From assembly GCA_958009085.1 (NCBI GenBank), contig OY253675.1:682001-746000 (forward strand): a DNA stretch of 64,000 nt. The letters are read 5' to 3'. The notes below the pieces were generated by a model, which worked only from the letters and a program-made list of their open reading frames with translations, was not told where the DNA came from and did no database searches. The stretch's first letter is position 1. The number at the start of each line of letters is the position of its first letter. The stretch is from Protoeuglena noctilucae (lineage: Eukaryota). Shown piece by piece: positions 12,116-54,400 of the stretch. Position numbers and translations under genes: made by a program.

Positions 12116-12315
12116 NNNNNNNNNNNNNNNNNNNNNNNNNNNNNNNNNNNNNNNNNNNNNNNNNNNNNNNNNNNNNNNNNNNNNNNNNNNNNNNNNNNNN
12201 NNNNNNNNNNNNNNNNNNNNNNNNNNNNNNNNNNNNNNNNNNNNNNNNNNNNNNNNNNNNNNNNNNNNNNNNNNNNNNNNNNNNNNNNNNNNNNNNNNNN
12301 NNNNNNNNNNNNNNN
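12116..12315. other. Assembly gap (200 N)
   Basis: Run of N characters. Confidence 1.
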
Positions 12316-17205: not shown

Positions 17206-17385
17206 TCAGCCCCGCTTGGCCCTCTTGCCACCCCCACCCCGCCCTTTCCCTTGCTCCCCGCTCTCCCGCTTCCCACCCCCACCCTCGCCCCGCCCACGCC
17301 CCCCCGCCTTCTCCCCGCGCCCCCCTTTGCCCCTACCCCCTCGCCCACCACCACCACGACCCCTCGCACCCTCACTTGCCCCCTC
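17206..17385 (-). repeat. Direct-repeat copy 1 (~180 bp), a duplicate of the last ~60 codons of the PUF6 CDS
   Basis: Near-identical to 20031-20216 apart from a few substitutions and a 6-bp indel. Both copies begin TCAGCCCCGCTTGGCCCTCTTGCC. Confidence 0.95.
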
Positions 17386-17491
17386 CTAACCCATCCATCC
17401 CGATTTTCCTCTTTCCCACCCTATCTTTGCTCCGTCCCATCCCTGCTCTCGCAACAGCCCGCTACCCTCCCTCCACGGACCCTGCTTGCAA

Positions 17492-19561
17492 TCACTCATC
17501 AGCAACGGGCCAAGCTTCCTTGTCATCCACTGTCAGGTCGGCAATGGGCTTGGGTGTGAAAACCTCCTTCGGCACGTCCTCCTCGGGGAACATGAGCTTC
17601 AACATGCGCCGAGCCGCAAAGTCCGCCAGGGTCTTGACCTGTGAGGCACAAAGCGAGGCATATGGTAGACGACAGAAACGAAACAAATCACACAACAGGA
17701 ATTGGATACAGCTTGCAAACTGACCAGTTGCGCCTTCTTGTCGGATGCACCATGATCCATAGCATTCACTGGGTACCCATACTTCTGCGCTGTGTTTGCC
17801 AGTGATGCCTCGTGCCTGAAGCGCACCAGCACACAGCATGCCGGGTTGATCCGCGCCTCAATGTAGCGCTGCGTCAAGAACGCAAACAGGACGTCAATTG
17901 AATGACATGTCTAAAGTCTCAGGACTGAAAGCAAGCGCCCTGTCAATCCACCTGTGAGGGCAGCGTCAATCCTTGGCCAGCGAACGTGATGAACAGCTGG
18001 GCCATCAGTCTCTCAGCTGCTTGAAGGTCCTCCTTGTCCTGTTTGAAGATGGAGCACTTCCAGCGAGTGTCCAGCCTTGCCGAGTACCTGCTCTCCACCA
18101 GCTGTAGCAGAATAAAGTGGTTTGCCTCAAAATCAGGAAATCAGGAAAGTCATGATGATTTTTTAGCCACGAACAGCATGCCAAAAGCTGATGCACGCAC
18201 CCCCATGAGCTTGACGCGGCACTTTGTGAGGAGATGAATCGTCGCAGTGTTCAACTTCCCCTTGTATTGAGCATGGATGGTGTCTCTCGCACTGCAATAA
18301 CAAGTAGGAGCAGGAGTCGGTCGGAGCAGAGGTGCCAACCTATCCCTAATTCTCAGTGGGGTTCTGTGCTGCAAATTTCGCCCAAGGCAATATGACTCAC
18401 GTGTTGTGCCTCAACGCCCAGTCCGGAAGGCAGCGTTCGAGGCTCCGTACACACTTCCGGGCGGACTGGTCAGGGACGACGGGGGTGAGGAGGAAGTCGG
18501 CGAGGCAGATGACCTTTGCGTTGCCCATGTTTGTGGATGGGTTGACGTCGATGAGTGCGATGTCAAAGGCACCATCGCGCCTTTCCCGGAAACGCTTCTG
18601 GATTTGGTGAAGGACCTGCGGAACAGTAACCGGAGCACTGCACGTCATGACTACAACCATTGCACATCTACTGCTGCTGCTGCTGCTGGCGGCAGCATCG
18701 TACCATGATGCTTTTAAAACGCACCTGTTGCATGGCCAGTAGGGAGCCCGTCGCCAGTTGTCCATTGCTGCCGTAGGCAAGCGTGCACTCCGATGAGAAC
18801 TTTTCAGTCCTCGTGGCCGGGAAGCAGATACAGAGCCCCACCCTTTTCCTCTCCCTTTTCCTCCGTGATGTTTTTGAGGTTGCTTGGGAGAGGTCTGAAG
18901 TGGCTGCTCAGAAGGTTGACCAGGCTGCAGGGGCAAGCTTAAGGCACGTTTAACACCGATTCCACTCCCAGCTTCGTGCTGGCAAACCGGCTGGTCCCAG
19001 CAGCGAGCCACCCTCTTGCCTGGGGCACGTGACCCTGTCGTTCCGCCCATCCAAAACACTGCGCATGGCATCATAGACGGTGTTGGGCTGCGACTCATTG
19101 GGTCCCGCATTGGGATTGTATCTGTTCCAGTTGCCAATTTGGAGAAAGCTCTCGTAGTCGACCTCCTGCGTTATCGCGGGAGTGTGATCCGTAGTCGCTT
19201 GAAGCATGCGAAGCACAGGAAGCGCCAGAATTAAGATGCAAGGCCAGCTTACCTCGACCTCCTTTTCCCTTGGCCGTTTGGGAAGCTCCAAGTGCTCAAC
19301 TTCATTGTTAAGCGCCCTGGGACCCCAGCGGTGCTCCAGCACCGCGTTGGGCGAGCGCATCGCCAGTTCGGATACCGTGCTCTGGGGATCAGCATCGACA
19401 ATGAGGACCCTCTTCCCCAGAGCTGCGAGTGCGTAGCCCATTTTGAGGGTCGTCGCGGACTTTCCGGAACCTCCTTTGAGCGAGTAGATGACGACTTGCT
19501 TGGGCACGTCTCCATCCGCCGCCATCGCCACTTGCTCCACCCTCGCTTCGGACACACCCAT
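17492..19561 (-). pseudogene. parA: ParA/Soj (MinD/ParA superfamily) ATPase with 8 exons and one frameshift near 18805 (pseudogene or sequence error)
   Basis: Deviant Walker A VVIYSLKGGSGKSATT, switch motif VLIVDADPQ, LYLLPGHED, Walker B FDIALIDVNPS followed by ADFLLTPVVPD, and C-terminal SLANTAQKYGYPV. Exons 19561-19253, 19165-19020, 18924-18725, 18615-18401, ~18292-18202, ~18102-17953, ~17867-17724 and ~17638-17492. Confidence 0.8.
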
Positions 19562-20030
19562 CTCTGCGGCGGCCGGCCCCCAATATCCAATCAAAGCAAA
19601 CTTACGTATGGTATGAATGTGTATGTGGGACTTTTGAGCCCCCAAAACAGTGCGATCCAGGTTTGACATGTCGAGGAATCTGCCCCGGGGATCTTCTTGC
19701 TTATTGCTTCAGACGCGCTACGCCCCGGGCCATCCTCACCTTTTGCTCAAACGAAAGCACAGGAAAGACCTCCGCAACTCCAGTCCTCCGTGGAGTTCGG
19801 TCTCTGTAACTTCAGGTTTCGCGAGTATCGGGGCAAGACAAGGAGGTCCTGCAACTAACTCTCTTCGCTACACCCGAAAGACGTCGAGAGTGAGTCTTGG
19901 TCGAGGTCGACAGTCCAGGAAGGCAACGCCAGTCACTGGCATCAGTCGCTGGCATTGTTACTGGCATTTCGCCTCAGTTCAGCTCTATTGCCCGTTTCCA
20001 AACATTGACAACGCATACGACCACAACACA

Positions 20031-20216
20031 TCAGCCCCGCTTGGCCCTCTTGCCACCCCCACCCCTCCCCTTCCCTTGCCCTTGCTCCCCACCCTCCCGC
20101 TTCCCACCCCCACCCTCGCCCCGCCCACGCCCCCCCGCCTTCTCCCCGCGCCCCCCTTTGCCCCTACCCCCTCGCCCACCACCACCACGACCCCTCGCAC
20201 CCTCACTCGCCCCCTC
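20031..20216 (-). repeat. Direct-repeat copy 2 (the real 3' end of the PUF6 CDS, ending at its TGA)
   Basis: Matches 17206-17385. It encodes EGASEGARGRGGGG...KRAKRG*. Confidence 0.95.
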
Positions 20217-23200
20217 TCCGTTGCCACCCTCGCCCCCCCCCTCCGCCTTCCTGCCCCGTTTCACCCCTCCCTGCTTCCCTCCCTTCTGCCCCTCAGACTT
20301 TTCAGCAGTACCCCCCTCGCCGTCCCCACCCCCGCCTTCCCCTTCCTTGCCCCTACCCTCAAACGTCGCAAGCCACGCATCCACGTCACCACCCGGCAAG
20401 CCACGCGCCAGCTCCTGCCGCACCGCTGCAGGGGCAGAGCAAGCGTAAGGTAGTTGAGAAAGCATGGTAAAAGGTTTGAGCGTAGCGTGCATATTGGGGG
20501 GGTGAGGGCGACACTTGACATTACTACCCGATACCTAATACCCTCCCCATCCATGGCTGTGCACCCATGCACCCCTCACCCTTGACTGTCTTCTCGTCCC
20601 CGCACGTCGCCAGCGCCGCCACCACCTTGGCTGCGTGGGTCTTGGCCAAAGACCCCGCCCGCCCCTTCACCGCCACCCCCCACAGCGCCGCGCACAGCGC
20701 CCGCCCGCACCCCTCGTCCTCCGCCACGCTCGCGCGCAGCACGCGCCTGCGTGCCAGAAACAGTCGGGAATTGCCAGATCTAGACGAGCAGAACCCAGCT
20801 GGGAACGGTGCTACTTGCGGCACCCTTTCCGCATCTTCAACCATATCGCACACGTGCAAACCAAAACGGTCACTGCATGCGACACTTCATCTCTCACCGC
20901 AGCGCCCGTGACACGAAGAAGTCCTCCATCAGCTTGCCCCCCTCCTGCGCGCATTCCCCCACCACCGCCTCCCGCACCCCCGCCACCCCATCCCCGCACC
21001 CGCACCCCTCCTCCTCCGCCAACACACCCCCCGCGCCGCCCCTGGCCACTTCCAGCGCCACCTCGCACCCGTGCCTGTCCCGCATCAGCTCCCCCGCCCT
21101 CGCTTGACACTCCGCCACCACCGCCGCACCCAATGACCCCGCTCCACTCCCCAGCAGCTCCCTCCGCCGCAGCGCTGGGTCTTTCCTAGCCACGTAAATT
21201 GCTCCCACGCGCCACCCGCCCCCCTCCTCCCCCTCGTCATCCTCAGCCACACCCAACCCCTCCCCATCCCCGTCATCGCCCCCCTCCCCACCCTCCGGCC
21301 CCTCATCATCCTCATCCGACCACAGCCCACGCTTGTCCTCATGTCCATTACCCTCCCCACCCTCATCTAACGATGGCTCATCGTCAGACCCAGACGGTCC
21401 CTCCCCACTCCCACCACCATCGCTCTCACCGTCATCACCCCCCTCCCTGTCGCTGCCACTCCCCCCCTCCCCGCTCTCCTCCTCCTCACTCCCGCTGTGA
21501 CCATCCCCATGCTCATGGTCATGGTGACTGTGATCATGATCATGGTCGTGGTCGTGACCATGCTTGTGATTGTGACCGTGGTGACTGTGACCATGCTCAT
21601 GGTCATGCTCGTGTTCCTCGTTGCCCTCCCCGTCTGTTCCCCTCGCCGGGTGCCCAATTGGCAACCGCCCCTTCCCCTTCCCCGCCGTCCCCGCCACCTT
21701 CGCCAACTCCGCTCGGTGCCTCGCGATCGAGTCCGCTTCTGCAAAGGACAAGGTATGAGAAGTTCTATTATTGTATTATGTAATCTTATCGACTATGATG
21801 CTGCTGCAGGGCTTAGTGCCGCTCAGGCATAGCAGCTGCACATTAAGGCCAGGCACCCGATCATCCATGCACATTCGCGCGCTCACCCGACACGCGCACT
21901 TCTGCCGGGTGCACCCACTCCTGCATCCACCGCGGCACGTACGAGGGGCAGTCCGGGGCCAGCAGCTGCAGCACGATGCGACGCGCGTGGGGGTGGGTGA
22001 GGGTCTCAGAAAGCACCGCCATCAGCTCGGGGAGGATGGCCTTGCGAAGCAGCTGCAAGGGGGAAGAGGGAGGGTAGTAAGGGAGTCGAGGGGCAGTGAG
22101 AGCATGGCAGTGACGGCACCCTCCCTATCGACATGGGGTGGGGAGCATTGTGTGCCCCAAGTCATGTGCCTTGCATTGCATCACCCATCGCATCACCCTG
22201 CCCCCTCACCTGCGTGTCGTCGGTCATGCACAGCAGCGTCAGAAGCACCGTGTGCCCCCACTCGTCCATGGCCACCTTTGCCAGGTGACCCTTGAAGGCA
22301 CGGGCCACGCGCTTGCGGTCACGGGCAGTGCCGGCTGCCACCACACGGCACGCCACGCGGGCACCGTCCTGAGAAGGGAGGGGTGAGATGGGAGGGGTGA
22401 AGTGAGGGGTGAGGTGTGATGGGTGAGATATGATGGGTGAAAAGGGATGGTTGCGTTTTGAAAAGTGAAAAGTAGGGTGCGATACATGCAACCCCACCCC
22501 ACATGCCTGCCCCTTACCCTGGTGTGCAGGATCCGCAGCAGCTGTGGCCCCGACAGCATCTCCGCAATGTCATAGACCTCCAGAGGCCCCGCGTGGTCCA
22601 TGAACTCCGCCAGCGCCCGGTGCGTGGGTGCGGGGTCCAGGAGAGCCTTCTCGGCTAGTGGCAGGACCTGGGTGGCCAGGTGTTGCATGACGGTGCGGCG
22701 GCGGGGGGGGTCCGACGATGCGAGGAGAGAGGCCAGGCTCTGAGGGGGAGCGGTGGGGTGGGTGGATGGATGAGGGTGAGGGTGGGGGTGGGGTGGCAAT
22801 GAGGGTGGCAGCGAGGTTAAGAGTTGCGTAGCCCCACCAGCAAGCTTGCCGCAGATACCGACAACAGCATCAAGCATCCAATCCAAATCTCATCCCCTTC
22901 AACCCTCGTCACCTTGGGCGCCCCCCCCTCGAACAGCGCGAACTCCGGCCCATAGAACTCGGCCACCAGCGCGTCCCTCTGGGGGTCCCGGAGTTGGGTG
23001 TACAGGTCGTCGACCACAGTGCAGCCGCAGGGGTGGCGCAGCAGGGGCACAAAGCGGCCCTTAAAGGCGCGGGTGAAGACTGGGGAGAATCAGAGGCGGA
23101 AGTGGTGGTGGAGGTGGTGGGTGGGGTATCTCACACATTGTGATAGTCCCCTGCACGGCGACTGCCAAGGGCGGCAAAAGCAAGAGTCGCGAGGTGCAGC

Positions 23201-48460: not shown

Positions 48461-51400
48461 TCATGCATCCCCCACCCCCGCCAGCTCCCTCACTTCCCTC
48501 TCCCTCTCGCCCCTCCCATCCCCCGCCACCCCCATCAGCACACGCAAATCACGCGCCCTCTCCCTGCGACGGTCTGCGGCCGTCTGACGGCTGAAGGCCT
48601 CGCGCTGCAATGCCGCCTTGGCTGCCTGGGTAATGGGAAAGGGTAAGTGATAATTAGTAGTTATGAAATAAGGAACGAGAGGTACTGAAGGGCCGCCTTG
48701 GCTGCCTGGGTAGTAGAGAAGAGTAAGGACAGTGAATAAGGAGAGATGATCAGATAGTGAGAGACGCTGCAGTGCCGCCTCAGCTTGGTTGTACGCCTCA
48801 TTACCCCAACACTCACATGAACTAACCCACGTCACTCTCTATCACCTCTATCACCCATTCCCCACCCCGACCACCCCCCACCTGCAGCGCCAGCATCCTC
48901 TCCTCCACCGTCCCCCTGGCCACGTATCTCCGCACCGTCACTGCCTTCGTCTGCCCCAATCGATGCACCCTGTCCATCGCCTGTTCCTCCACGCTGGGGT
49001 TCCACCATGGATCGAGGATGTGGACGCGGGACGCCGCGGTGAGGTTCAAGCCCACGCCGCCTGCCTTGAGGGACAGGAGCAGCACGCGGGGGGAGGTGGG
49101 GGAGGGGGACTGGAAGGTGGAGATGGCGGCGGCCCTGGGGGGGTGGGTGGGGTGGGGTTGAGATGAGAGGATGAGGTGTTGGTGCAGGTGAGGATAGGGT
49201 GGGTGGCGAGCAGGGGTGGCAGTGGAAATAGCACAACGCTTGATAATTGCCGATCCCGCCCCTCGCAATCACACACTCCCCTGACGTGCGCAAGACCACA
49301 GTTTAGCCACGATCTACCCTTACACCTGCCCTCACACACCCCACCCCCCCTTCCCCCCCTCACCTCTGCGGCGCGGGCACCGTCCCATCGATCCTCAACG
49401 ACTGCACCCCCACCTCCCCCAATGCCCTCCCCGCGGCATCCAGGGTGCCCCGGAACTGAGAGAACACCACGTGCTTGACGGGGGTGTTGTCGGCGTGAGT
49501 GAATGGGTCCGATTGGATGAGGGTGATGAGGCGACGGATCTTGGAGGAGAGGGGGGGGGTGAGGGGGGGAGGGGGGGCTGGGGGGGGATGGGTGGGGGTG
49601 GGGTGAGTGAGTGTGTGAGTGAGTGGGGTGAGGTGCGGTGAATGGGAGTGGGGTGGGTGGGATGAGTGGGTGATAAGTGAGGGGGGTGTCGTGGAATGAG
49701 TGGGAGTGGGTGAGAGTGGGGACTGCAGCGGTAATGGTATCTAGTCAAACTCAGCCCTGCACCACTGCTCTCCCTCTCTCATTAACTCCTCGCCTGCTCT
49801 TCCCCCCCTCCCCCACGTCTGCCGCATCCGATGCGTCACACTAACAACACCTGACACACATCTCATATACACACATATATACATTCAAATCCACCTCTCA
49901 CCTGCTCCTCTCCCTCCTCCCCCACGTCTGCCGCATCAAACAGCGTCTGCCAGGAGAGTGGGCCGCGGCAGAGGGGGCAGCGGGGCTCAGCGGCGATGAT
50001 GACGGTCTCAATGCACATCTGGGGGGGAATGGGATGGGAGATGTTGGTGTGTTATGTGTTGAAATGATATTATTGAACATGATCAATCAATGATCATGGA
50101 TTCGACAAGCTATAACCATCAAACTACCATCAACACTTGTCTCCCTCCCACACCTTGCAGAACACGTGCCCGCATCGTAGTGACAACACCACTACTAACT
50201 CACTCTAACTCTCTCTCTCACTAACTCCCTCACCTTGCAGAACACGTGCCCACACAGGGTGATGACGGCATCGCTTGGCGCGTCCAGGCACACGGGGCAG
50301 TCCTCCTGCGCACCCTGGCTGAGCAGATCACGCAGACGAGCAACGGAGTCGGGGGAAGCGGGAAGCTGTGAATGGGGGGAGGGGGGGGGGGGGGGGGGGG
50401 GGGGTTGAGTGATGAGGGTGGGGGGTGAGGATGGTGGTGGTGGTGGTGGTGGTGGTAATGGTGGTAATACTGACTCGGGGGAAGCGGGGAGCTTGGGGGG
50501 GGAGGAGAGAGGGGGGTTGAGTGGTGGGGGTGGCAGTGATGGTGGGTGCGGTGAGGGTGGGTGGCAGTGGGGATGGCAGTGAGGGTGAGGGGTGAGCGTG
50601 TATGGGGGTAACGCCCCCAAACAGTGAGCCACCCCCAATCACCCCATCATCCCACCACCACTCACCCTCTTCCCCCCCCACTCCTGCATGCTGGGCACAT
50701 CCACAAGCAGAAACAGTGAACACATCACAAATCACCTCCAATCACCCCCCCAACAAATCCCATCACCACTCACCAACACTCACCCTTTCCCCCCCCAACA
50801 AACCCCAACCACCATCACCCCACTCTCACCTTCTTCCCCCCCCACTCCTGCATGCTGGGCACATCCTTGGGCACCAGCCCCGGGTGGGAGCAGACCTGCC
50901 GCATGCGCAACAGCAGCTCGAGGATGGTGGCATAGGATGACAGGACGGCGTCGTCGTCGCGACCCATGCGGGCCACTACCATGCGAGAGAGCGACTCCCA
51001 TTGAGCATAGAGGCGGGACTCGTCGGGCTGGGTGTATGGGAGAGGGATGGTAATGTTATTATTACTATTGTTATATTACTAATATTGATGTGTCTGGTAT
51101 GTTTATGTTTATATTGCATGTCAAGTGTGCGAGAGAGCGACTCCCATTGGCGGTACAGGCGGGACTCGTCGGGCTGGGGGGGGGGGGGGGCAAAGTGTTG
51201 ATGGGTAATTATGAAAAATGATGATTGGCAATTCTTATTGTTTGTTATCGTGGGTCATGGTGCTACTGGTACAACCAATAGGAGCAATATTACTCAAATA
51301 CAGTAGATGCTATCACATGTACCCATTCTCACCTCCAGGTCGACTGTTTCGATGACCACCGTCTTGGATGGGAGCGACACCAAGGGGCGGCCGTCTACCT

Positions 51401-54400
51401 GGGGGGAGGGGGAGGTGATTCCATGTTAATGGCTAGATATTGTGCAAAAAGCTTGTCATGTTTATCATGTTTACCATGCTTATCATGTTTATCTATTACC
51501 ACCTCCCCCACCTGCATGTCCTTGGTCCTCCGCAGCGCCAGTGCTATCGGTGAACACTTTCAGACAAGCACTATCAACAATACCATAACTGCCATTAAAT
51601 TATCACCATCACCACATCCTACCTGCATGTCCTTGGTCCTCCGCAGCGCCAGTGCCCCCAGGAAGACCCTCAGCGCCTGGAGACCCTCCTCACGACCCTG
51701 GGGCGACACAAGCAGAAGAGATTAATAGCAAATCATAGCAAATCAGAGAATCTGCTGACCTAAATTACAGCAACTATGGCAACAATATCACTGCCAGTGG
51801 TAATAAGTGTTACAAATGTATTACTATGATGATATATAGTACTATCTATAACAATTAAACACCGCTCTCACCTCCCTGAGCGGCCTGGTCACGGCCCTGT
51901 TCCACGCAGCCGGGCTGTCCATGAGCGGCAGTCGCAGGAACCGCGCCAATCCAAACAGGTCCTCTGCCTTGTTCTGAATGGGGGTGCCGGTCAGGATCCA
52001 ACTGGGGGAGAGAGGGGGGGGGTGGTAATTGTTATATAACAATAATATTCAATTACTGTTGTAAATATTGTCCCTTCAGTACTATTATTATATGACTAAC
52101 AATACCACTCTCAATAGTACCCACCCTCACCCCCACTCCCACCCCCGCCGCCACCCTTTCCACCACCCCCACCCCCACCCCCACCTTCACCCCAACGCAC
52201 CCCACTCCCCCAACCCCCCCTCCTCTCATCACCCCCACCCCCACACACCCCACGCCCCCATCCCCCCCCACCCCTCACCGGAACTGCGCCTGGAGCGCAC
52301 AGGCGGCCTTGTTTGTCTTGGTGCGTGGGTTGCGAATCACGTGACCCTCATCCAGCACCACGCGCAGCCAGGGTGTGCGGGAGAGGGGGCCGGTGGTGCC
52401 CTCGGTGGACAGCACGTTGTAGGTGGTGAGCACGATGTCGTAGCTAGAGAGCTCTGGGGGTGAGGGTGGCAGCGAGGGTAGCAGTGGGGGTGGCAGTGGG
52501 GGTGGCAGTGGGGGTGGCAGTGAGAGTGGCAATAAGTGAGGCAATGATTGTGGCAGTGGGGGTGGCAGTGGCACTGGGCTGGCGGTATACCTTACTCGGG
52601 TGAGCAGGGACACATGTCACACCCCATGCGATCTTCGCATGCCTTTGTCACACTCACCCTTGGCCCCCCTGGCCCTGGCCGCATTGGAGGAGTGGTACAG
52701 GTGCACCGAGAGTGCGTTTGGCAGAACGTGCTGTCGGATCTGCTCCTCCCAGTTGCTCAGCACGCTGACCTGGGGTGAGGGGAGGGAGAGAGTGGGTGGG
52801 TGTGAGCTGGTAAGTGTTGTGTTATATGGGTTGGCAGTCATGAAAACGGTGATCATCCACCCGGGATCATCGTTTCTACCAATACCAATCTCTTTCATAC
52901 CATTAATAGCTAGCATTGCCAGCTCATCCACACCAACTTATCCACTCCCTAACCGCGCACACGATGAGCGTCCGCTGCTCATCCCTCAACCCTCACCATT
53001 CTCACCAGTCAGCTGTAATACCACTGATATCTAATGATCATGATAACAAATTATTTACTCTCTCACCGGGCACACGATGAGCGTCCCCTTGCCCCCTTCC
53101 GCCTCCACTGTCGCCCAGTCGCCGTGCAGTGCCCCGTCCATCGACCACGCCAGCGACAACTCCGCATCCAGCTGTGACTGGGTCTGGGGCTGAGACACTG
53201 CGATTGTAAGAATAGGGACACTCATGGTTTGGTAACAATCAATGTGGATGTGCATCAACACACCCGCACCCGCACTGCCACCCCCACTGCCACCCCCACC
53301 CGCACCCTCACCTGCACCGCCACCCCCCTTGCCCCTCCCCCACCTCCCGCGCCCTGCCTTGGCCTTGGCAGTCTTTTTGTAACCCTTCTTGGGGCGCTTG
53401 GCAGGGGCCTGCGAGTAGTCATCAAGTGAACACCCATAAAGATAGTGAATAAGTGACTATTCGATTCGGGGACAAAACGTATGCCACATATTATGCCACA
53501 TATTATCTCATTTGCTCAAATCAGCTCCTATGATCCTCACCTCCACCACCACCACATCGTCATCCTCCTCTCTCTTGACCACCCCAGCACCCCCACCCTT
53601 GTCACTCCCCGCAGCCGCCCCCACCACCACCACATCATCATCATCCTCTCTCTTCACCCCTGCGGCAGGTAAAGAAGCGCCGAAATTACCCATCGCATCG
53701 CCTAGCATCCACAGTGCCACACCCGCATCACGCATTACAGCACCTATCACCCTAGCCACCCACACCCACATCACAGCATAGCATTTACTACCCTAGCACC
53801 TATCACACCCACCCGCATCACATGTCATCACCTCACAACATCACAGTACCCCATCCCCTCTCACCTTGCACGCCTGTTGCTGTAACCGAGTCCACCACCG
53901 GCGTGGCCCTCAGCACCGGGACACCGGCGCTGTCATCTCCACCCACGTTGTTGTTACCCATGTTGTTCACCACCGTGCCGTTGCTCATCCCAGGCAGCGC
54001 AGGGAGGGTCATGGGGAGGCCATAGAGCTGCATACCATTACCCATAGCCAAGTAAGGGACGAGGCGAGGGTCGGCGACTGGCAATGCAGGCATGGTCCAT
54101 TGGGGTTGCATGCCCCAGCGAGGGTCGATCATGGGCAAGGGGGGAAGGGAAATGGGGGGTAGAGTGGAGATGGGGGGTAGAGTGCCCAGGGGAGCGCTGA
54201 GGTGTGGGTTGAGGGATGGGTTGCTTGCATGGTTGAGTTGGGGGTTGCTTGCGGGGTTGAATTGGGGATTGTTCTGAGGGTTGCTCGTCGTGTGTTGGCC
54301 AGAGGGGGCGTTGACGGGGAGGAGGGGCGGGCGAGGGACGCCGGGGCGGTGGGAGACGATGAGTGCCAGTGCGGTGATGGTCTTGCCCAGGCCCTGCGTG

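Follow-up and report, generated by a model that had tools for sequence, protein, structure and literature searches.

The window analysed here, 64,000 nucleotides (nt) of a Protoeuglena noctilucae contig (assembly GCA_958009085.1, contig OY253675.1, positions 682,001 to 746,000 of the forward strand), carries on its minus strand, at 19561-17492, a nuclear, intron-bearing gene of a bacterial lineage of long ParA ATPases. This conclusion is carried by the exon-intron structure of the gene, by two introns that are spliced out, by the family placement of the encoded protein, by an atypical composition and by a frame break that is present in the DNA itself. The gene is transcribed, and its introns 5 and 7 are removed in RNA. 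It is a divergent addition to a recently described kind of eukaryotic ParA, not something categorically new, and we lean, if modestly, towards the view that its present allele has recently been inactivated and is decaying.

Gene structure and transcription

The gene runs from an ATG at 19561 to a TGA stop at 17494-17492 and comprises eight exons and seven introns, each intron being of the GT..AG type with a CAG acceptor, which bears out what an earlier note on this DNA had said of eight exons with canonical acceptors. Exon 1 (19253..19561, 309 nt), with its ATG in the context GAG ATG G, encodes the deviant Walker A motif SLKGGSGKSAT (KGGSGKS) and the Walker A' motif VDADPQ, and is followed by intron 1 (19166..19252, 87 nt, GTAAGC..CAG). 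Exon 2 (19029..19165, 137 nt), which includes ..NTVYDAMRSVLDGRNDRV and is homologous to the ParA family, ends at the donor CAC/GTGCCC at 19028, in phase 2, and precedes the inferred intron 2 (18925..19028, 104 nt, GTGCCC..CTGCAG). Exon 3 (18725..18924, 200 nt) reads LVNLL..GALYLLPGHED in frame 0 down to 18807 and then EKFSSECTLAYGS..AMQQ in the +1 frame; intron 3 (18616..18724, 109 nt, GTGCGT..CAG) includes a (CAG)6 run. Exon 4 (18401..18615, 215 nt) holds the Walker B motif ..FDIALIDVNPS as well as TPVVPD and LPDW, and is separated by intron 4 (18292..18400, 109 nt, GTGAGT..CAG) from exon 5 (18201..18291, 91 nt), which ends ..KLMG. Intron 5 (18102..18200, 99 nt), exon 6 (17952..18101, 150 nt), intron 6 (17869..17951, 83 nt, GTGGAT..CAG) and exon 7 (17725..17868, 144 nt, with ..AQKYGYPV..) follow, and intron 7 (17639..17724, 86 nt), which appears as CT..AC on the plus strand, leads into exon 8 (17492..17638, 147 nt) with the TGA stop. 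All six motifs that had been named in the earlier reading are thus to be found in the exons, namely KGGSGKS and DADPQ in exon 1, LLPGH in exon 3, IDVNPS and TPVVPD in exon 4, and AQKYGYPV in exon 7.

A first model with a 32-nt intron 2 was dropped, because such an intron is too short next to the 83-109 nt of the others and because the stretch that it renders coding, 19033-18959, has no coding signal. An in-frame upstream ATG at 19669 was likewise set aside as a start, the coding statistics there being weak (GC content at third codon positions, GC3, of 0.53; log-likelihood difference of ~3). The idea that the introns are copies of a repeat, or introners, was also rejected, the seven introns sharing only chance matches of 8-14 nt with each other or with the window.

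The contigs that aligned to 17400-19720 came from marine metagenome runs, from runs labelled with one organism and from two metatranscriptome runs; the whole stretch of the gene is present in the first two kinds, and a small share of it in the two metatranscriptome runs. In a 181-nt RNA contig of run X10, intron 7 is skipped with an exact joint from 17638 to 17725, the aligned joint being 17634/17721 with the cut set at +4. A 166-nt RNA contig of run X9 covers 17952-18102 and carries 15 further, loose letters identical to 18202-18216 at the end of exon 5; the last 16 nt of exon 5 are thus joined to exon 6, and intron 5 is removed in RNA as well. Introns 1-4 and 6 lie outside the RNA contigs, which give no measure of expression level. 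The seven spliceosomal introns that had been predicted, with a check of their junctions in RNA proposed, thus stand confirmed for introns 5 and 7, the other five being without RNA cover.

Could the gene be bacterial contamination, or the contig a chimera? In favour of this, the nearest family consists mostly of bacterial proteins, and marine metagenomes are among the best DNA sources. Against this stand the seven GT-AG introns, the eukaryotic neighbour genes, and DNA contigs from both run X6 (labelled with the organism) and run X1 (a marine metagenome), which carry the gene and extend into the repeats that flank it. Because the RNA is spliced, contamination is refuted for practical purposes, and we give it a negligible probability.

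Family assignment

Matches of exon 1 to Pfam CbiA (1.4e-12) and AAA_31 (1.1e-11) are both above the gathering scores, and its best NCBIfam match is ParA_partition (6e-11). The deviant Walker A motif of SIMIBI ATPases, xKGGxxK[ST] with an N-terminal signature lysine, is present as SLKGGSGKSAT. In a recent preprint (bioRxiv 10.64898/2026.10.19.760177, October 2026), ParA proper, of the PriB1 type, is recognised by DxD with Q two positions on (DxDPQ) and by a hydrophobic Walker B stretch that closes with D; the protein studied here has both, as VDADPQ and as FDIALIDVNPS.

The proteins to which it is similar, at 22-26% identity over its residues ~21-432, constitute a long ParA lineage of ~340-430 amino acids (aa) with KGGxGK[ST], VDADPQ, LLPG[HS] and, as Walker B, D..PS, their C-terminus being extended and carrying a conserved W and G. 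A profile built from nine long-ParA members (alignment A1) brought out three kinds of relative, namely eukaryotic proteins, bacterial loci and viral or prophage contigs. The profile alignment of the protein with the long family spans positions 3-321 of 348. Among the group profiles, the protein scores 107 bits with the HEPN-linked bacterial ParA proteins, 95 with the eukaryotic set, 90 with bacterial members lacking HEPN and 45 with the Soj type. In a careful maximum-likelihood tree, with 62 rows chosen by hand from ~190, five of them classical ParA/Soj sequences, the long assemblage including the protein is split from those five at 100/100. The earlier note had proposed a phylogeny of the spliced protein, and this tree places it within the long ParA assemblage.

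Classical ParA/Soj and plasmid ParA/ParF proteins (PDB 1wcv, 6iub, 4dzz; NCBIfam NF041546, ParA_partition) share with the protein the deviant Walker A with the signature lysine, DxDPQ and Walker B, and these shared motifs, in the light of established ParA biochemistry, imply the same ATP-sandwich-dimer chemistry. They differ from it in that their Soj-type profile scores 45 bits as against 107 for the long family, in the tree split just given and in ParB context, which the window lacks; the protein is also longer at its C-terminus and carries an additional insert behind the second strand. As the earlier note had it, there is no ParB nearby: no ParB (ParBc) family matched in the open reading frames (ORFs) scanned across the window, parS sites not being part of the search. 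The family profile aligns along its whole length with a single solved chain, PDB 3pg5 chain A (361 aa, "Uncharacterized protein", its function undescribed), its positions 50-402 falling on residues 2-347 of the chain at E 1.4e-36, a comparison made through the family profile and not directly with the spliced protein of the window.

Another explanation to be weighed is vertical inheritance within a eukaryotic SIMIBI family, such as plastid MinD, NBP35/Mrp/HCF101 or GET3/ArsA. MinD has MinD-type switch motifs and a membrane-targeting C-terminus, and NBP35/Mrp/HCF101 proteins have a C-terminal CxxC cluster ligand motif. Exon 1 does give sub-threshold matches to MinD, Mrp/ApbC, ArsA/GET3 and NifH models, but these are confined to the P-loop, spanning only ~40 residues around it, and lie far below the curated cut-offs. 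In particular, TIGR01968 (MinD) matches only residues 22-58 of exon 1, with 32.6 bits as against a cut-off of 212.9; PF10609 (NBP35/Mrp/HCF101) matches only profile positions 2-41 of 246, and no CxxC was found in the spliced translation; and the GET3/ArsA models reach 21.7 bits (PF02374; cut-off 24.3) and 19.5 bits (TIGR00345; cut-off 135), again at the P-loop only. The motif present is DADPQ and not those of MinD, Mrp or GET3, the full-length similarity is to long ParA only, and the tree, which contained no MinD, NBP35 or GET3 sequences, sets the long assemblage apart from classical ParA. The assignment to a bacterial ParA type, made previously from the sequence, is thereby upheld, and vertical inheritance in one of these families is very improbable.

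Finer placement within the long assemblage is another matter. The bacterial HEPN-linked members form a clade with 100/99 support, and the protein falls outside it, its sister group being a clade formed by eight eukaryotic sequences (P0171, P0174, P0168, P0164, P0165, P0061, P0038 and P0163) at UFBoot (ultrafast bootstrap) 85 / SH-aLRT (approximate likelihood-ratio test) 69. These values, lower than the thresholds commonly applied, weakly suggest a sister relationship with them. A tree constrained to the eukaryotic grouping was 9 log-likelihood units better than a quick free tree. That said, several results weigh against reading a definite origin into this. Namely, the terminal branch of the protein measures 3.0 substitutions per site; in approximately unbiased (AU) tests, whose groups were named after a tree had been seen, neither the eukaryotic grouping (p = 0.74) nor the HEPN-linked bacterial grouping (p = 0.45) was rejected; and all relatives are 22-26% identical, none of them standing out as a donor lineage. 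What is more, the preprint describes a conserved Walker-A valine for the ParA "ConB1" conflict systems (bioRxiv 10.64898/2026.10.19.760177), and KGGSGKS in the window has Ser at that place, which is occupied by V, G or I in all nine members of alignment A1.

Searches for closer relatives gave little. With exon 1, among longer proteins, 509 candidates came down to the window's own read-through ORF and two alphaproteobacterial proteins, and with exon 4 none of nine candidate proteins scored. A phmmer search of 1.84 billion representatives, with the read-through ORF of 239 aa as query, found only the ORF itself at E<=1e-30 and six proteins at E<=1e-10, nearly all of its 935 matches being to the P-loop only; in that search, relatives more than 50% identical would be hidden in the ORF's own cluster, and ORFs of 57-180 aa fall outside it. 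For exon 4, the JGI metagenome contigs gave 497 pattern matches, of which none was confirmed, and a plasmid tblastn gave nine records, all below 34% identity. IMG/VR held no close relative, exon 1 matching there at the P-loop only (38-55% identity) and exon 4 over only 15 residues.

Bacterial, viral and eukaryotic relatives

Long-ParA relatives were fetched from 80 bacterial loci, many of them in Cyanobacteria, Dehalococcoidia, Bacteroidota and Pseudomonadota. Directly downstream of the long ParA, 46 of the 80 have an ORF of ~200 aa with a HEPN_RiboL-PSP domain and an Rx4H motif, which usually overlaps the ParA ORF by 4-37 nt (loci L024-L103, e.g. L035:5989-7624 and L067:5995-7630), and the order of ParA followed by HEPN was seen in 9 of 12 loci inspected by hand. 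The ParA proteins of these operons (HEPN_RiboL-PSP, Pfam PF18735) have the same architecture as the protein of the window over residues 21-417, including the C-terminal extension, and theirs is the profile with which it scores best. The two have in common K..KGGxGK[ST], VDADPQ, LLPGH, D..PS, P..PD, and the W and G. They differ in that the window's gene is only 22-26% identical, has introns and a frame break, has Ser in Walker A where theirs has Val, and has no HEPN gene beside it: tblastn of nine HEPN partners against the 64-kb window gave no match better than E = 0.057. ParA "ConB1" conflict systems are set out in the preprint, ParA-effector pairs with HEPN among them, and so are standalone-transposon-prophage (STP) ParA lineages; the operons described here correspond to those ParA-effector pairs, and the bacterial context of long ParA can be read, following it, as one of conflict or defence systems (bioRxiv 10.64898/2026.10.19.760177).

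In loci L036 and L037, integrases lie in the vicinity. Loci L095, L100, L101 and L075, from Rickettsiales and other alphaproteobacteria, have a long ParA without HEPN, and in the careful tree they group close to the eukaryotic members, at a weak 64/80. Relatives of the long ParA are also found on 80 viral or prophage contigs.

Among eukaryotes, long-ParA members include Monosiga brevicollis MONBRDRAFT_38473 (P0171), Spumella MMETSP1098 (P0163) and further EukProt entries such as P0061. These standalone ParA-like proteins belong to the same long assemblage as the protein of the window and are ~24-26% identical to it; compared with P0061, P0038 and P0168, it lacks their acidic, nuclear-localisation-signal-like (NLS-like) N-terminal tails. 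Tandem two-domain long-ParA forms, from Hanusia phi (P0020) and Palpitomonas bilix (P0045), occur in the same assemblage. These two and P0049 measure ~900-1100 aa with two tandem long-ParA domains, and the two domains of each protein are mutual closest relatives, in both trees for P0020 and P0045 and in the first tree, the sole one including it, for P0049. As far as these trees go, the pattern suggests that the domains were duplicated internally and independently of one another.

Two eukaryotic standalone ParA clades, Euk1 and Euk2, have been described in some metazoans and photosynthetic eukaryotes and are taken to have been acquired horizontally twice from bacteria (bioRxiv 10.64898/2026.10.19.760177). 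The main text of the preprint gives no species or accessions for them, and the Monosiga, Spumella, P0061, Hanusia and Palpitomonas proteins are probably members of these clades. The gene is therefore no isolated curiosity, since the assemblage has other eukaryotic proteins and eukaryotic clades are already in the preprint. Literature searches on ParA in green-algal nuclear genomes returned nothing further, and those linking the Monosiga locus tag, or RiboL-PSP with HEPN and ParA, to the subject returned nothing relevant.

The frame break in exon 3

The exons of the gene total 1393 nt, that is, 3n+1, and the first stop comes at codon 189. At GAG GAC TGA (18804..18812, minus strand), frame 0 of exon 3 runs from ..GALYLLPGHED into an in-frame TGA at 18806-18804, and reading resumes one base on, with the rest of exon 3 and all downstream exons in the +1 frame. 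The "complete ParA fold" of the earlier note is for this reason not readable in one frame, and canonical splicing gives no intact ParA. Since neither a GT nor a GC donor occurs in the bases 18812-18804, no canonical intron can link LLPGH to the downstream frame. Nor is the break a slip of this assembly, since the DNA contigs of run X1 and of run X6 (87x word depth) show 0 differences to the window over 17400-19720.

Three results identify frame 0 as the one in which the 5' part of exon 3 evolved. The GC values at the three codon positions are 0.64/0.33/0.69 for frame 0 and 0.38/0.68/0.62 for frame +1, as compared with 0.60/0.41/0.73 in the sure exons; the codon log-likelihood is -153.8 in frame versus -171.5 and -166.2 when shifted; and LLPG[HS] is conserved among the relatives, its G, which the frame-0 reading retains, being invariant in alignment A1. 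Reading through the break in frame 0 gives a model of 463 aa, which reaches 107.0 bits against the HEPN-linked ParA profile, as against 94.7 bits for the best intact alternative, and which retains 22 of the 27 family-invariant residues, including every nucleotide-binding motif. The canonical mRNA, on the other hand, encodes an N-terminal piece of 188 aa with Walker A and A' only, without Walker B and the C-terminal DNA-binding part. Because the break leaves just such a piece, recent inactivation is the likeliest state of the present allele, a view to which, as said, we attach modest confidence.

Some observations count against inactivation and for a gene that still works, its full-length ATPase being produced by alternative splicing or by +1 ribosomal frameshifting. 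For one thing, the gene is otherwise undamaged, with seven canonical introns, no other stops and its invariant residues largely in place, and it is transcribed; a long-dead pseudogene would display more damage. For another, no RNA contigs fall on exons 1-4, so that the junctions of exons 2, 3 and 4 are without RNA support. Finally, 33 single-intron alternatives, several of them with introns of 81-117 nt, restore an open frame of 432-482 aa by way of the +1 frame of 5' exon 3. An example is a 108-nt intron from a donor at 19011 to an acceptor at 18904, which puts 5' exon 3 in the +1 frame (..RRKRERKRVGLCICFPATRTEKFSSE..) and yields 462 aa; the intact alternative model keeps 21 of the 27 invariant residues and scores the 94.7 bits given above. 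However, the alternative acceptors lie downstream of the strongest one (ttgcccctgCAG, 18925), which gives the broken frame, and frame 0 is favoured by 12-18 log units in codon statistics and by 12-15 bits in the profile comparison.

The frameshifting version would have a +1 shift at GAC-UGA-A, and the stop does coincide with the point of the shift, a feature of known +1 recoding sites. No frameshift-stimulating RNA structure was found in the 79 nt after the stop, which fold no better than shuffled sequences (z = +1.29; 185 of 200 shuffles fold as well). A functional product would be a standalone ParA, acting for example against viruses or selfish DNA, in line with the anti-selfish-element role that the preprint proposes for Euk1 and Euk2 (bioRxiv 10.64898/2026.10.19.760177). 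Taken together, we regard a functional gene as a serious but doubtful alternative. A purine-rich stretch of exon 3 at 18845-18870 (minus strand) encodes EEKGEEKG when read in the homologous frame. Its +1 frame, on which the intact alternative splice model relies, gives RRKRERKR, a basic cluster that resembles an NLS.

Composition, flanking repeat and neighbourhood

GC content is 0.55-0.59 at 17-20 kb as against ~0.65 in the surroundings, and GC3 is 0.73 over the 1182 nt of sure exons as against 0.90 pooled (range 0.77-1.00) over 2304 nt from 10 neighbouring gene segments. The gene is thus less GC-rich than its neighbours, just as had been noticed at first sight. It is enclosed, as the only gene, by two copies of a C-rich direct repeat with sharp ends, ~95-96% alike, of which the left one (17206..17385) is ~180 nt long and the right one (20031..20216) differs by a 6-nt indel. 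This repeat could be the footprint of an insertion or of a duplication.

Such features raise the question of whether the gene is the cargo of an integrated virus or mobile element, as the earlier note had entertained, with the 180-nt direct repeats marking the insertion. The repeats do enclose exactly one gene, GC and GC3 are below those of the surroundings, and the bacterial relatives are frequent on prophage-type contigs; moreover, the mirusvirus episome of the marine protist Aurantiochytrium is described as encoding a putative ParA (PMC12606086). On the other side, no integrase, transposase, capsid or polymerase family matched in 100 ORFs of at least 85 aa at 12.3-28.8 kb (E<=0.01), nor elsewhere in the window in ORFs of at least 130 aa (E<=1e-5). 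The viral loci of the family are 22-25% identical to the protein and no closer than the bacterial ones, IMG/VR, as described above, holds no close relative, the introns are not repeated elements, and nothing but the ParA-like gene lies between the repeats. Of the support for such carriage, only the flanking repeat is left, and we consider the carriage improbable.

The neighbours in the window are of nuclear type and include an NTM1-type methyltransferase, a photolyase/cryptochrome, a pyridine-nucleotide oxidoreductase, CRAL-TRIO, Myb, a SNF2/HIRAN helicase, Nop56/58 and a RING ankyrin protein of the XB3/XBAT type (RING_XB3/XBAT match). The Atlas clusters closest to the Nop exon occur most often in Streptophyta. 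Judging by these plant-like neighbours and by the Nop exon clusters, the host, a marine eukaryote with a GC-rich genome, is probably a green alga.

Elsewhere in the window, an assembly gap of 200 N at 12116-12315 falls within a local GC dip. An ORF at 20894-21775 (minus strand), downstream of Pumilio-like ORF pieces at 22.2-23.7 kb, has a long His/Asp/Glu/Gly-rich tract (HDHEHGHSHH..DHDHDHDH) and no Pfam match. The lowest GC content of the window, 0.488 as against ~0.65, is at 51001-52000, between Helicase_C and HIRAN pieces, and this stretch may be a long intron of the gene to which the two belong.

Proposed history and implications

The history that we propose is the following. The ancestor of the gene would have been a member of the bacterial long ParA lineage, whose members stand mostly in operons with a HEPN RNase or on prophage-type contigs. 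A eukaryote would have acquired it horizontally, either directly or by way of an older eukaryotic lineage, and the seven spliceosomal introns would have been gained after the transfer. The gene now stands alone, no HEPN, ParB or other partner having been found in the 64-kb window. Lastly, the +1 break ending in TGA, with the 188-aa piece that results, would mark a gene that was recently inactivated and is now decaying. If it were nevertheless translated in full, established ParA biochemistry suggests that the product would form a sandwich dimer that depends on ATP and would act as a switch by binding to DNA or to a partner. One can go further and imagine that a marine green alga keeps a domesticated, partner-less ParA of a bacterial conflict-system lineage working through recoding or splice choice, and that this protein binds invading viral or selfish DNA and immobilises or mis-segregates it, but this we hold to be unlikely.

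ParA ATPases are usually seen as proteins of prokaryotes, plasmids and phages, and here we have a eukaryotic nuclear copy with an exon-intron structure and with evidence of splicing in RNA. Eukaryotic copies had previously been reported, as far as the preprint sets them out, only as protein phylogeny (bioRxiv 10.64898/2026.10.19.760177). The gene also links the eukaryotic ParA material to a specific bacterial context, that of a ParA followed by a HEPN RNase, and it illustrates one possible fate of such transfers, namely that the partner is lost, the sequence diverges fast, introns are gained and the frame then breaks. A dead gene would be an ordinary horizontal acquisition in decay. A functional one would offer a tractable candidate for a factor against viruses or selfish DNA in a marine alga that is ecologically abundant, and if the recoded or respliced reading is true, a bacterial ParA-effector defence system would have a single-gene descendant in a eukaryote.

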